A DNA stretch of 64,000 bases from Candidatus Babeliales bacterium. GTDB taxonomy: Bacteria > Babelota > Babeliae > Babelales > JANWKD01. The DNA lies in NCBI GenBank assembly GCA_963722075.1, contig CAVRJM010000001.1:1354566-1418565 (forward strand), written 5' to 3'. Made by a program: the position numbers and the translations under genes. Of this stretch, positions 1 through 4,300 are shown in pieces. Numbering within the stretch: position 1 is the stretch's first letter; the number at the start of each line of letters is the position of its first letter. A model generated the notes under the pieces. The model made no database searches, was not told the origin of the DNA, and worked only from the letters and a program-made list of their open reading frames with translations.

Positions 1-2142
1 GATATTTTAGGAAATTGCGATCTAATCAAAGAATTTGATAAAAAACATTACAAACAAGTAAAAAAAACCATTAGGTTTTTAGGTATTAAAAATAGAAGAA
101 TAAATCAATATAGTAATGGCAAGCGTACATTTGCCCAAGCATTCATACTGCCAAAAGAAACGGTTTATAAAAAGCAGGTAATAAATAAAGAAGAAACTAA
201 ACAATTAGAACAAGCAGAAACTGCATTACCAGTAATTAAATTAAAAAAACCGGGTAGCACTACCTTGGGCGCATTAAAAATGACCCCGCAAGCATTGCCT
301 TACTTCTCAACCGTTAGAAAATGGATGGAAGAAAAAGATTCAGATGCTAAAGCAATTTGCATCTTTGAAGATGATATTTCATTAGAAAATTTAAAAAGAA
401 TCAATAAAATTATTCCATTATTTTCTCAAGAAAAAAGTGAATTAGTTCCTTGTATAGTTAAAATGTTAGATTCTTTCAATTTAAAAAAGAAAGATATTCG
501 TAGTCTTAAAGGTGCTGCCTTCTTCTTAGGATGCGAGCAATTAGTAAAAGCGTGCCAGAAGGTATTAATAAAAAAAATAATATATAAAAACAGTAAGAAG
601 CATGAAATAAAATTAAAAAATGCTGGAGATGTTACCATTGGTATTCTTAAAATGACGCCGGAAGCATTACCCTATTTTCCAGTATTACGAGATATGTTTG
701 CAGTTGATGAGGGCGCGGGGGTACTTTCAGAACAACAAATTTCGCTTGAAATAGTGAACTTCTTGAATGAACTGCTTCCCTTATTTTTCCCAAGACCGCT
801 TGAGGAATTAAAAAAAGATATACATCAGATATTGAAGCGATGGCTAAATAATGATGAAACAATTCAATTGTTAAATGCAGCAAATTTTTTAGGATGTGAA
901 CCATTGATGGAATGTTGCTGTACAGTCCTTTCTGAAAACCTATTGCTATTGAGAAATGCTAATAATAAAGAAGCAATAAGACAAATAATTGACTCATTAA
1001 ATCTTGATTTGAGGGATTTAGTATGCAGTCAGCTCGGTCAACGGATTATTGCCATTAAAACTCAATGTATTATACAAAAGGGTCTAAATACTCCTAATTT
1101 TTCAGATATTACTATTACAAATGATGGAACATATATCGCTGCCTATAGACCTCATGAAATTCATATTATAAACACCAAAAATGGGTGGTCGAACATAATA
1201 CGTTGTGGTCAAACAGCGGTTGAATTACTATTTTTAGCCGATGGAACCTTGGTGAGCGAATCTCCCGGTGTAATAAAATATTGGCAAATAGCTGATAGGC
1301 TTCCTACAAAAAAGTTTACAAAACCAAAGGGTAGCTGGTATGGACAATTGTCAGCAAATGATGGGGCTTTTATTATTTTAAAAAATGGTCTCTTAGATTT
1401 TTATTATGATAACAATAATTATAAATGTAAATTTTCTTATGGCGGTAGAATCTTTGATATTTCTTGCGATGAAAAGTTAATAGCTTTTGCGGGATATAAG
1501 TATGTAAGAATTGTTAGAAAAGAAGATGACGAATATAAAGAATGTAAATTGATTCCATTAGAGGAGGGACATGGTTTTCCCGTCCCTCTATTTTCACCCA
1601 GTGGAAAATGGTTAGCTATGTTCGATAGCAAGTTCGTTGAAGATATCTTTTATATGGTTGATATGGCAACAGAAGAAATAAAATATGCAATTCCTGTTAG
1701 AACGATACCTGATGCTCAATTTAAATTTTCATCAGATGATAATTTTATAGTTAGATTTTCAACGAATGTATCAGGAGCTCCTATAGAAATCTATGATGTA
1801 CAAACAGGTGAACGTATTTATACTTTACCAAACCTTTGTAAACTTCAACATCTTTGTATATCCCCTGATTCAAAATTATTAGTAACGGTATCAGAAAATT
1901 TGATTAAGCCTCCTCTGGGTGGTGCTAAACAAGAGATAGTTTTTACGAATTTACAAACGGGCAACAGTTTGTCTGAATTTTTTTATCAGCCTCAAGATGA
2001 CCAGCCCATAGATTGCATTGTTTTTTCACCCGATAGTAAATCACTTATATTTGGGACAGATACTGTTTATAAAATGGATATAAGGCCAAATTTTAATTCC
2101 TTAGAAACAGAAGATATCATCAACGAATTGTTTAAGAAATAA
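1..2142 (+). CDS. Skp1/BTB-like + WD40-repeat protein, 5'-truncated by window edge
   Basis: Frame is open from base 1, upstream of the ORF-track start at 265. Two Skp1-like helical motifs (LKGAAFFLGCEQLVKAC; LLNAANFLGCEPLMECC) and C-terminal WD40-type blades (FSPSGKWLA, ISPDSKLLV, FSPDSKSLIFG). Paralog of the next two genes. Confidence 0.75.
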   Translation, partial: DILGNCDLIKEFDKKHYKQVKKTIRFLGIKNRRINQYSNGKRTFAQAFILPKETVYKKQVINKEETKQLEQAETALPVIKLKKPGSTTLGALKMTPQALPYFSTVRKWMEEKDSDAKAICIFEDDISLENLKRINKIIPLFSQEKSELVPCIVKMLDSFNLKKKDIRSLKGAAFFLGCEQLVKACQKVLIKKIIYKNSKKHEIKLKNAGDVTIGILKMTPEALPYFPVLRDMFAVDEGAGVLSEQQISLEIVNFLNELLPLFFPRPLEELKKDIHQILKRWLNNDETIQLLNAANFLGCEPLMECCCTVLSENLLLLRNANNKEAIRQIIDSLNLDLRDLVCSQLGQRIIAIKTQCIIQKGLNTPNFSDITITNDGTYIAAYRPHEIHIINTKNGWSNIIRCGQTAVELLFLADGTLVSESPGVIKYWQIADRLPTKKFTKPKGSWYGQLSANDGAFIILKNGLLDFYYDNNNYKCKFSYGGRIFDISCDEKLIAFAGYKYVRIVRKEDDEYKECKLIPLEEGHGFPVPLFSPSGKWLAMFDSKFVEDIFYMVDMATEEIKYAIPVRTIPDAQFKFSSDDNFIVRFSTNVSGAPIEIYDVQTGERIYTLPNLCKLQHLCISPDSKLLVTVSENLIKPPLGGAKQEIVFTNLQTGNSLSEFFYQPQDDQPIDCIVFSPDSKSLIFGTDTVYKMDIRPNFNSLETEDIINELFKK

Positions 2143-2155
2143 ATGGGGCAATAAA

Positions 2156-4300
2156 ATGAAAAAAATTAACCTAGTACTCGCATTATTTGCATGTAATTCG
2201 TTGCTTGCCATGGAAGCACCCAGCTCAAATGAATTAGTAGAAATAGTATTTGAGAATAACCAAAAGGGGCTTTTTAGTAGAGCAGTGTTAGAAGTATCTA
2301 AAACGCTGAATGATTATTATTTACCCCATATTTCTTCAGGACAGCAACTATTATTATGTGGTGGTCTTAATGGTTCTGTTTTTAAAGACGATTTTGAATT
2401 ATACATATACCCCTTAATGCAAGCCGTATATAATAATGACGAAAATGTTATACACGATATTAGATTTAATATTGATATATTATCTATGGATGATTCAGAA
2501 AACGGGGATATTAGAAGTAAACGAGTTAATAATGTCGTCAGATTTTTAGATGTGGGTATCTTCTTAGATGATGAAGAGCAACAAGGAACTAAACGCTCAT
2601 TTGGTGAGGCTTTTGAAGCAGCGTACAAGTTGCAAGAGCCCGTTTGCAAAAAAGGTAATTATCAAGGTAGCCAACCCGATTCTCCAATAGCGCCACAACA
2701 GGAACCTGGTGATAATGTGGCCATCTTAAAAATACCATTACTTAATGAACAAGATGAGCAAATTGATACCCTTGTATTGCCAAAAGAAGTGTTACCATTT
2801 TTTTCAGTCTTAAATAATCTACATGAATCATCTATTGCAGGGGCCATGGAGCTATTGGAAAAAAATATTTCGCCTTTGATTATCAAAATATTAAACGATC
2901 TTACGCCATTATTTTTATTTAAGGTATCAGAAGATGACTTAAAAAAAATGATGAATGAAAAATTGAAGTTGATGGGTAATAATCAAGTAGTTCAATTATT
3001 AAAAGCGGCGGATTATTTAGGATGCGAACTTCTAATGGATGTATGCTTTACCATTTTATCAAACAATATAAGAGCCTGCCAAAATGAAAAAGAAAAAATG
3101 ATTAAAGAAGTGGTAGGTCCGTTTGATAATAATTTACGTAGTATATTATGCGGACATCTGGCTGAAGATGTTGTTTTTACTGTTGAACCCGTGAATATTA
3201 ATGGGATTGATAAAAACCATCATATTACGAGTATTGCAACATCTTATGATGGAAATTATATTGCAATATATTCCAATGAAACAAAAAAAATATATATTTT
3301 AAATGCTCAAACTAAAAATGTAATTAATACAATAAATAGTTCTCAAAAAGATGTTAGTCTACATTTTTTAAGAAATGGCAACTTATTAAGTAAATCTCCT
3401 TGTGTTATTAAATATTGGAATATTAATCGAAAAAAATCTCTCAATTCAATAAAAATTCCAAATGGAACAGAGATGACAAGGATTTCCCCTGATGGTGAGA
3501 TTTGTGCGGCAGTGAATGAAATGGGGTATGTACAATTATTATCCCAAAACTCTCAAGAAAATGTTTCTTTAGGGAATTTAGTTAACAATGCTCATTGTCG
3601 GGGTAAAAATGTCCATGATTTAGTTATTGCTCCTGATAACAATGTTATGGCTGTACAACAATGGGCAAAAGTTAATGATGTATTTGTTAGAAAATATAAA
3701 GTTATCGATAAACAAAAAAATATAACAAGAACTTGGAAGATAACAGATGATTCTAGGAATTTTGGAGGGCTTTGTTTTTCGTATAGAGGAAATTTATTGG
3801 CATCTTCTTCTTTAAATAATCTTACTATTAAAGATTTAAAAAAAGGAAACGATTGGGAGTGCATTTTTCCTTTGGGAGTGCCTGAAGGGAAAATTAAATT
3901 TTCACCTGATGATGCTACCGTAATATGCTATAAATTAAATAAACCAGCTAATATAGACATATTTAATTTGAGGGATAATTCATCCTTTACGATTAGTGAT
4001 CCAGCTATTTTACAAGCGATGGCGATTTCTCCGGATAGTTCTTTATTGGTATTGGCTTTTAGTTATCCTAGCGTTGGCGATAAACCCTGGCAATCAATAG
4101 AACTTTATAGTTTAAAGAGGAAAGAAGCTGTTTATAAAGATGTAGTGAAATGCGATTATTTAATTGAAGAGCTTACCTTTTTACCAGATGGCAAATCGCT
4201 TATTTGCGGGTCTGATAAATTATATTTTATTAATATAAAAAAAACAGATTTTGATTTTTTAGAAACAGAGGATGTTGTAGAGCAGCAATTATTTAATTAA
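2156..4300 (+). CDS. Secreted Skp1/BTB-like + WD40-repeat protein
   Basis: Signal peptide ending LLA-MEAP; LLKAADYLGCELLMDVCFTIL Skp1-like motif; WD40 blades (TSYDGNYIAI, ISPDGEICA, FSPDDATV, FLPDGKSLICG). Confidence 0.8.
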   Translation: MKKINLVLALFACNSLLAMEAPSSNELVEIVFENNQKGLFSRAVLEVSKTLNDYYLPHISSGQQLLLCGGLNGSVFKDDFELYIYPLMQAVYNNDENVIHDIRFNIDILSMDDSENGDIRSKRVNNVVRFLDVGIFLDDEEQQGTKRSFGEAFEAAYKLQEPVCKKGNYQGSQPDSPIAPQQEPGDNVAILKIPLLNEQDEQIDTLVLPKEVLPFFSVLNNLHESSIAGAMELLEKNISPLIIKILNDLTPLFLFKVSEDDLKKMMNEKLKLMGNNQVVQLLKAADYLGCELLMDVCFTILSNNIRACQNEKEKMIKEVVGPFDNNLRSILCGHLAEDVVFTVEPVNINGIDKNHHITSIATSYDGNYIAIYSNETKKIYILNAQTKNVINTINSSQKDVSLHFLRNGNLLSKSPCVIKYWNINRKKSLNSIKIPNGTEMTRISPDGEICAAVNEMGYVQLLSQNSQENVSLGNLVNNAHCRGKNVHDLVIAPDNNVMAVQQWAKVNDVFVRKYKVIDKQKNITRTWKITDDSRNFGGLCFSYRGNLLASSSLNNLTIKDLKKGNDWECIFPLGVPEGKIKFSPDDATVICYKLNKPANIDIFNLRDNSSFTISDPAILQAMAISPDSSLLVLAFSYPSVGDKPWQSIELYSLKRKEAVYKDVVKCDYLIEELTFLPDGKSLICGSDKLYFINIKKTDFDFLETEDVVEQQLFN

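Follow-up and report, generated by a model that had tools for sequence, protein, structure and literature searches.

A candidate class-3 nuclear localization signal conserved in predicted exported Skp1-like proteins of a Babeliales bacterium

Class-3 nuclear localization signals (NLS) follow the consensus KRx(W/F/Y)xxAF, with five positions each found important, and are described as minor-site-selective with importin-alpha from yeast, rice and humans (PMC3946659). Few natural examples have been described, from eukaryotes and a virus. The hybrid NLS of the Merkel cell polyomavirus large T places a K-R-X-F core at the minor site, followed by a weakened downstream basic cluster (PMC10807245). Among bacteria, both NLS-bearing effectors and F-box mimics have been described (PMC1781473, PMC7830128, PMC10117894, PMC11895443). 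F-box effectors hijacking the Skp1-cullin-F-box (SCF) ligase include VirF of Agrobacterium and GALA of Ralstonia (PMC1781473), as well as AnkB and LegU1 of Legionella, of which AnkB uses a CaaX in the host (PMC7830128). The Anks of Orientia are reported to target nuclear cullin-1 (PMC11895443). The known hosts of the phylum of the Babeliales are protists (PMC12172432). For Babela massiliensis and other TM6, published work describes a type II system as well as secreted proteins with ankyrin or WD40 repeats, F-boxes or a place in the ubiquitin system (PMC4378268, PMC4776705, PMC6561590).

Here, we analysed a stretch of 64,000 nucleotides (the window) of the 1.47 Mb genome of a Candidatus Babeliales bacterium (G000; coordinates with C1 are those of the contig, all others those of the window). 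The best matches of the UppS encoded in the window include three Candidatus Babeliales sequences (59, 53 and 52% identity); the other two of the top five are named 'bacterium' and 'Saccharimonadales', and the remaining matches do not exceed 45%. Its first genes form an array of three open reading frames (ORF1 to ORF3) encoding paralogous proteins with an N-terminal signal peptide and Skp1-like domains, two of which match the class-3 consensus exactly. We put at roughly 0.65 the probability that this conserved motif is a mimic of a class-3 (minor-site) NLS carried by host-delivered Skp1-mimic adaptors. Signal cleavage, a flexible linker and Skp1-like folds are predicted; we infer delivery, importin binding, nuclear entry and cullin binding.

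Position and conservation of the motif

The two exact matches are KRTFAQAF in ORF1 (residues 145-152; 121-144, + strand, as are all features of the array) and KRSFGEAF in ORF2 (residues 146-153; 2591-2614). They are in frame and, as the sequence-only reading of this DNA had proposed, at equivalent positions of the paralogs; they start 15 and 16 residues past the end of the N-terminal domain. That reading placed KRTFAQAF upstream of the start of its ORF track. The motif is indeed coding, since the gene begins at G000:C1:1354254 (window -311). ORF3 carries KRPLE at residue 146 (4750-4764), where the KR is kept and the class-3 aromatic residue and AF are absent. The KK patches noticed after these sites are also there: 16 residues past the motif K in ORF1 (169-174), 19 in ORF2 (2648-2653), and 8 and 19 residues past the K of KRPLE in ORF3 (4774-4779, 4807-4812). 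They leave KR-to-KK linkers of 14 residues in ORF1 and 17 in ORF2. The patches of all three proteins are off the major-site consensus K(K/R)x(K/R); they would at most be weak partners for the major site. The earlier description of the consensus as "minor-groove-specific" was right about the consensus itself; the correct term is minor site. In a classical bipartite NLS, 10-12 residues separate KR from a downstream K(K/R)(K/R) or K(K/R)x(K/R). This pattern had no match in ORF1 to ORF3, even with linkers of 8-24 residues.

In the AlphaFold2 model of ORF2 (mean predicted local distance difference test, pLDDT, of 73.4, built from 7 sequences), the motif lies inside a linker (residues 135-188; 2558-2719) with a pLDDT below 50, which predicts an exposed and flexible context.

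The motif count alone is not above chance. We found two strict matches among the 1342 ORFs of at least 80 amino acids in the genome, whereas 20 shuffled sets had 0.5 on average and never more than 2; ORF1 and ORF2, being paralogs, count as one event. A back-translated pattern of the motif matched 116 of 121 genomes of the order. We inspected 86 loci, covering the first match from each of 30 genomes and the complete set of 57 from six genomes, and found only six in-frame matches in frames of at least 100 amino acids. We take these to be ribonucleotide reductases, membrane proteins and signal-peptide proteins, two of each. An apparent enrichment, suggestive of a wider use of class-3 signals in same-family genomes, was discarded, as only 4 of the 57 matches in the six genomes were in frame in long frames. 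Since an exact match is near chance, support must come from conservation.

A full scan of 1.84 billion representative sequences returned eight matches: the three window proteins, four outside homologs, and an isoform of fish ankyrin-2 (P0007), which was removed as spurious. With the ankyrin paralog P0009, the family has eight members: ORF1 (P0002), ORF2 (P0001), ORF3 (P0004), P0003, P0005, P0006, P0008 and P0009. The strict motif is present in four of them: ORF1, ORF2, P0003 (KRKFEDAF) and the ankyrin protein P0008 (KRQYEDAF). Two more have a single mismatch, P0005 (KRRLEDAF) and P0006 (KRIFEDLF). Conservation in homologs was the check named beforehand by the sequence-only reading, and the motif is kept with at most one mismatch in all four outside homologs (exactly in two), and in six of the eight members. 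The proposal that these are secreted, nucleus-targeted effectors is supported in part. A conserved motif in a predicted unstructured linker of signal-peptide proteins, in a lineage that lives as intracellular parasites of protists, speaks for it; ORF3 and P0009, which lack the class-3 form, speak against it.

Among the six motif proteins (selected on the presence of the motif), which share 27-51% identity in their N-terminal parts, the K, the R and the last F are invariant, and the free position after KR is occupied by six different residues. The flanks (-11 to -1 and +8 to +29) are saturated, with pairwise identities of 0 to 0.2. The distance from domain 1 to the motif varies between 13 and 16 residues, and synonymous changes separate ORF1 from ORF2 at four of the five defining codons. 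In shuffled 50-residue linkers the strict motif arises at a rate of 1e-5 to 1e-4. A kept motif, saturated flanks and altered synonymous sites together indicate conservation above chance. A K[KR] occurs 16-23 residues downstream in all seven KR-bearing members, against 13% in the background. The motif is found with WD40 as well as with ankyrin C-termini, and in the tree of domain 1 it occurs on both sides of the sole starred branch; the two proteins without it are long branches. A 186-base contig from a relative (depth 3.1) showed three listed substitutions in the motif, two of them silent and one at the free position, and six of seven listed flank substitutions changed the residue; with 10 of 16 substitutions classified, these numbers are too small for a test.

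Other searches extended the family no further. Word-based sequence searches retrieved nothing beyond known proteins and those of the genome itself, and pattern scans of metagenome and genome contigs gave no further homologs. The N-terminus of ORF2 as query matched none of 40 relatives, and profile A4 matched none of 260 other genomes. Profile A3 gave only six weak matches in three other genomes, in ORFs without the motif.

Skp1-like domains and architecture of the array

ORF1 encodes 817 amino acids. It starts 312 bases upstream of the window, which holds its 3' part (1-2142). It encodes, in order, a signal peptide, a divergent Skp1-like domain 1, the motif linker, Skp1-like domains 2 (residues 182-304; 232-600) and 3 (residues 305-425; 601-963) and a WD40-type propeller (approximately 1051-2088). 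ORF2 (714 amino acids; 2156-4300) has the signal peptide, domain 1 (2234-2557), the motif linker, a single further Skp1-like domain 2 (residues 191-312; 2726-3091) and the propeller (3164-4243). ORF3 (386 amino acids; 4315-5475) has the signal peptide, domain 1, the linker with KRPLE and KK patches, and one Skp1-like domain, and is devoid of a propeller. In all three proteins a hydrophobic signal peptide is followed by MEAP; in ORF2 the Sec signal peptide was predicted at 2156-2209 by an in-house heuristic rather than SignalP. The ORF2 model has an alpha/beta domain at residues 27-131, a second one from residue 190 and the propeller from 339. The latter has a WD40 fold (best Z 27.3 in a structure search, root-mean-square deviation 3.7, 328 aligned residues), and WD40 propellers filled the match lists of both structure searches.

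The Skp1-like domains were recognised with an in-genome profile, as the window proteins alone gave no match to Skp1. The seed was a paralogous domain matching the Pfam profile Skp1_POZ (E 9e-15). The iterated profile gathered 21 domains in 15 proteins, of which 13 belong to this genome and the others are P0003 and P0005; among these domains are domain 2 of ORF1 to ORF3 and domain 3 of ORF1. With a 15-domain profile (A5), Skp1 proteins of solved structure ranked first in the PDB (best E 5e-10), over the BTB/POZ part only, with matches ending near residue 115-130. Of the 15 members of A5, five match Skp1_POZ with E values no higher than 1, the best being 9e-13. For PF01466, the C-terminal part of Skp1 that binds the F-box, nothing in the genome exceeded the cut-off. 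At E ≤1e-5 the profile matches 48 of the 261 genomes of the order, the source genome included. Domains 2 and 3 are thus predicted to be Skp1/BTB-POZ-like by profile similarity. Domain 2 of ORF2 has an A-[DN]-[YF]-L motif that aligns to the ANYL of Skp1. This region of Skp1 contacts Cul1, for which our literature search gave no confirmation. A protein atlas offered Skp1/BTB clusters at scores of 0.81-0.83, as a lead only, and a single-sequence model of residues 19-340 had a mean pLDDT of 43.7.

Domain 1 is at best a divergent member of the Skp1-like domains. Aligned to their profile with hhalign it gives a probability of 50 and an E of 1.6e-4, and in the ORF2 model its secondary structure resembles theirs, in a Skp1/BTB-like fold that would lack the hydrophobic last helix. 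A wider profile matched domain 1 of P0005 (1.6e-6) and P0006 (3.6e-4), that of ORF1 only at 0.068, and that of ORF2 not at all; domain 1 had no sequence match in Pfam or PDB.

The array is lineage-specific at this site, because the genes flanking it are adjacent, 162 bases apart, in a genome of the same genus (G001, 93% complete). In this assembly ORF3 ends before the propeller. Putative out-of-frame remnants of the propeller and C-terminus (5462-5542, +) resemble those of the paralogs, weakly and not significantly (E ~5 each), which suggests decay by deletion.

Further Skp1-like genes occur elsewhere in the genome and in its relatives. One locus (L006, G000:C1:791672-800974) has four tandem genes for Skp1-like domains and a propeller, whose products have basic C-terminal tails bearing clear mono- or bipartite NLS-like stretches. 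Another (L005, G000:C1:973370-982682) has four tandem genes with two or three Skp1-like domains and WD40; the mature chain starts with MKRK...KK in two of the proteins, and one ends with the CaaX-like CLLS. By eye, other members in relatives have LRR- or ankyrin-like repeats in place of WD40. A Skp1-like and WD40 gene (L169/L015, G243:C1 ~739500-741900, -) has an in-frame stop directly past the Skp1-like domain.

Signs of export and of putative host address tags

The genome encodes two secretins, two ATPases of the T2SSE family and ATP/ADP translocase-family genes. A crude in-house rule for signal peptides classed 533 of its proteins as exported and 592 as cytosolic. The bipartite KR-type NLS pattern matches 13 of the exported proteins and 2 of the others (Fisher p 0.003). 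In controls of the exported set, reversed sequences gave 3 matches, shuffling within 40-residue windows gave 3.5 (none of 40 shuffles reached 13), and the RK-order pattern gave 4 versus 4.1. CaaX tails end four of the exported proteins (0.57 expected) and none of the cytosolic ones. These CaaX ends and order-specific bipartite signals in the signal-peptide set would make sense only in a eukaryotic cytosol. In the Skp1-like family of the genome, 5 of 14 proteins match some class of NLS (0.8 expected; the highest of 30 shuffles was 5).

We also collected 955 proteins from 60 stretches of relatives, picked around Skp1-like matches. Among the 116 Skp1-like ones, 15 match an NLS class (4.7 expected, maximum 9), none of them class 3. 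CaaX ends are found in 6 of these 116, in 3 of 313 other exported proteins and in 1 of 373 other proteins. KRK-type stretches lie between two Skp1-like domains, as the motif does here, in three such proteins from two further genomes of Babeliales. Skp1-like proteins of relatives with CaaX ends (the six above) or with hydrophobic segments resembling tail anchors (5 of 116) come from loci L130, L132, L138, L143, L170 and L188, and L146 and L151.

A further trait concerns the signal-peptide region. A small residue followed by Met and then E/K/D/N/Q occurs at positions 14-30 in 31% of the 533 signal-peptide proteins (e.g., 2210-2221 and 4369-4380) and in 37% of 416 in relatives, compared with 3% and 1.5% in control windows and 5.6% in cytosolic proteins. 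The mature forms of these proteins would begin with Met, like eukaryotic ones. Met-Glu/Asp/Asn/Gln N-termini are substrates of acetylation by NatB. The pattern could be a way to avoid N-degrons, or a relic of start codons.

Some other proteins have features that recall host sorting or host machinery. Secreted ankyrin proteins (P0008 at ~196-235, P0009, window 55001-57760 and L008) carry a stretch S/T-L-x-x-x-A ... LP..L, which resembles a BC-box/SOCS box; P0008 and P0009 had no Pfam match to it at E 0.01. Close to its N-terminus, the protein at 55001-57760 additionally bears basic clusters of the KRK and KKVK types. By eye, the products of window 29955-32414 (-) and of G000:C1:1337561, 1340327, 245095 and 561953 have Arg/Ser-rich, acid-poor stretches past the signal peptide that look like mitochondrial presequences. 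The window also holds an apparently decayed GIY-YIG-type ORF (6935-7330) with an inverted-repeat-like pair around it (~6970-6995, ~7300-7330), a DUF1016/YhcG-like gene that spans two overlapping ORFs, as well as a transposase-like ORF (52949-54108, 57824-58855), all recognised by eye.

Competing explanations and comparison with known systems

If the motif is a class-3 NLS mimic, the proteins would be exported by Sec and cleaved, leaving the Met-Glu N-terminus seen in the sequence. They would then be released into the host cytosol, probably through a type II system or vesicles. There, importin-alpha would take up the KR in the P1'-P2' pockets of its minor site; the aromatic residue and AF would add selectivity, and the downstream KK might touch the major site weakly, as known structures of hybrid NLSs suggest. 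Once the protein is in the nucleus, its Skp1-like domains would bind a cullin instead of Skp1 with an F-box protein, and the propeller would select substrates for ubiquitylation, or the protein would sequester the cullin. Taken on its own, this cullin-adaptor step is the weakest of the mechanism, and we would put it a little short of even odds. More speculatively, Babeliales may deliver Sec-exported proteins to the protist cytosol in a finished, eukaryote-like form, with a Met start exposed by cleavage; interchangeable tags (class-3 or bipartite NLS, CaaX, hydrophobic tails) would there direct single-chain Skp1 mimics, a large family of ubiquitin-ligase adaptors, to the nucleus or to membranes. 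This would imply the first minor-site-specific NLS of a bacterium, and direct docking on cullin bypassing host Skp1 and F-box proteins. We regard this wider picture as tentative, and would sooner bet against it than for it.

Several observations weigh against the NLS reading. About 0.5 strict matches per genome are expected by chance, and the in-frame matches of relatives are mostly within ordinary folded proteins, housekeeping ones included. None of the 955 proteins of relatives has the strict motif, the 116 Skp1-like ones included. Two of the eight family members are without it, ORF3 (KR only) and P0009 (none). The outside homologs are only four and belong to single-member metagenome clusters, two of which share the length of their longest contig, so that as few as one genome may be behind them, and the query that retrieved them itself contained the motif. 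The enrichment of NLSs is weaker in relatives, where the non-signal set exceeds the shuffles for some patterns (373 proteins, of which 22 fit an NLS class, with 14.8 expected and a maximum of 21), and the signal-peptide classes rest on a crude heuristic. Finally, KR and a hydrophobic residue coincide with the end of the last helix in intact Skp1-like domains.

This last point is the basis of the main alternative, an unlikely one, in which the motif is what remains of domain 1's last helix, folded back on that domain with F, A and F buried, and its likeness to an NLS is a coincidence. Counted from [YF]L[DG] across 54 intact Skp1-like domains, K/R peaks at +16/+17 and L/I at +18; domain 1 has KR at +13 to +16 and the aromatic residue at +16 to +19, near the end of that helix. 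The ORF2 model also has a short helix at 151-158, and the proteins without the motif are those whose domain 1 is on long branches. Yet the intact helix is 72-100% hydrophobic at +6, +7, +10, +11, +13 and +14, whereas domain 1 is largely polar or Gly/Pro from +6 to +14, and the spacing shifts by 1-3 residues. Moreover, domain 1 persists in P0009 (34% identical to P0008 over 890 columns) even though the motif is absent, a packing helix would not be expected to keep K and R invariant, and the pLDDT at the motif is ~30, albeit in a model from only 7 sequences. A terminal helix is in any case reported for minor-site NLSs themselves (PMC10807245). The motif may have been recruited from the end of the domain-1 helix. 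That it arose as a chance match in one ancestor and was inherited without selection, as the single event behind the two paralogous matches and the expected count per genome would allow, is already largely refuted by its retention among proteins with N-terminal parts only 27-51% identical, with saturated flanks and changed synonymous sites.

Two further alternatives accept a function for the motif. It might bind importin-alpha as a decoy or competitor, blocking host import or dragging importin-alpha to the cullin. Bimax1 is an inhibitor of import. KRPLE of ORF3 has the same five letters as the minor-site residues of Bimax1 (Table 1 of PMC3946659); class-3 peptides are described as binding with high affinity at a site shared by the nucleoporins that release cargo (PMC3946659). 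Several homologs also have acidic linkers ahead of the second basic patch. However, this patch is weak, and the ordinary NLSs, CaaX ends and hydrophobic tails found at varied sites of paralogous Skp1-like proteins fit interchangeable address tags, so we find a decoy improbable. Alternatively, some other partner (a host protein, a bacterial chaperone or a secretion component) might recognise the stretch as a short linear motif, or the proteins might stay in the periplasm or at the surface. Hydrophobic residues at i, i+3, i+6 and i+7 with basic residues are common in helical docking motifs, and we infer, rather than observe, that proteins of this genome are delivered to the host cytosol. But the conserved positions are precisely the five of the class-3 consensus, the free position is fully variable, and the CaaX ends and order-specific bipartite NLSs of the signal-peptide set point to a eukaryotic cytosol. 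We consider another partner or location very improbable.

If the NLS reading is correct, the array provides concrete and easily tested candidates for nuclear effectors in a phylum with few cultured members, as well as indirect evidence for the arrival of Sec-exported proteins in the host cytosol, a point relevant to any account of effector delivery by these parasites. Our literature search, in which most subscription papers were beyond reach, found no class-3 NLS in a bacterial protein. Nor did it find Skp1-like proteins in Dependentiae or NLSs in the phylum, although this does not prove their absence from print. Skp1, BTB, POZ or nuclear localization did not occur in the supplements on the phylum that we searched. 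A word search of the main text on Babela gave neither BTB nor "nuclear", and in the TM6 comparison Skp1 was not found, in the parts of these sources that were covered.

As class-3 signals, the motifs are close to described ones: KRSFGEAF of ORF2 differs from KRSFSKAF of RNA helicase II/Gu, and KRKFEDAF of P0003 from the library peptide b6 (KRKFSDAF), at free positions alone (sequences as listed in PMC3946659). They differ from known class-3 NLSs in belonging to bacterial signal-peptide proteins, in having a weak second basic patch after the motif, and in being predicted from sequence. The layout is like that of large T, whose NLS linkers are of 11-21 residues in the reported structures, compared with 14-21 here (PMC10807245). 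The latter signal is viral and, as reported there, was shown by experiment, whereas here the downstream patch is merely KK or KR and its role a prediction.

The architecture also has known counterparts. Like the proteins of Babela and other TM6, which were proposed in the papers cited above to act in the host cytoplasm, the proteins of the array combine a signal peptide with eukaryote-like repeats. Like Skp1-Cdc4 and Skp1-Fbw7, they associate a Skp1 fold with a WD40 propeller, but in one chain instead of two; Cdc4 and Fbw7 are just two among many WD40 matches with similar scores. Unlike with eukaryotic Skp1, the F-box-binding part is not found in the genome. As in F-box effectors, a eukaryote-like adaptor module is fused to a repeat domain and accompanied by host address tags, here putative ones. 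Those effectors mimic the F-box and bind host Skp1, whereas the proteins described here would mimic the BTB/POZ part of Skp1 itself, in two or three tandem copies, and have Sec signal peptides with a putative route of secretion. Known bacterial hijackers of SCF mimic the F-box; a family of Skp1 mimics, as predicted here in 48 of 261 genomes of one order, is little described.

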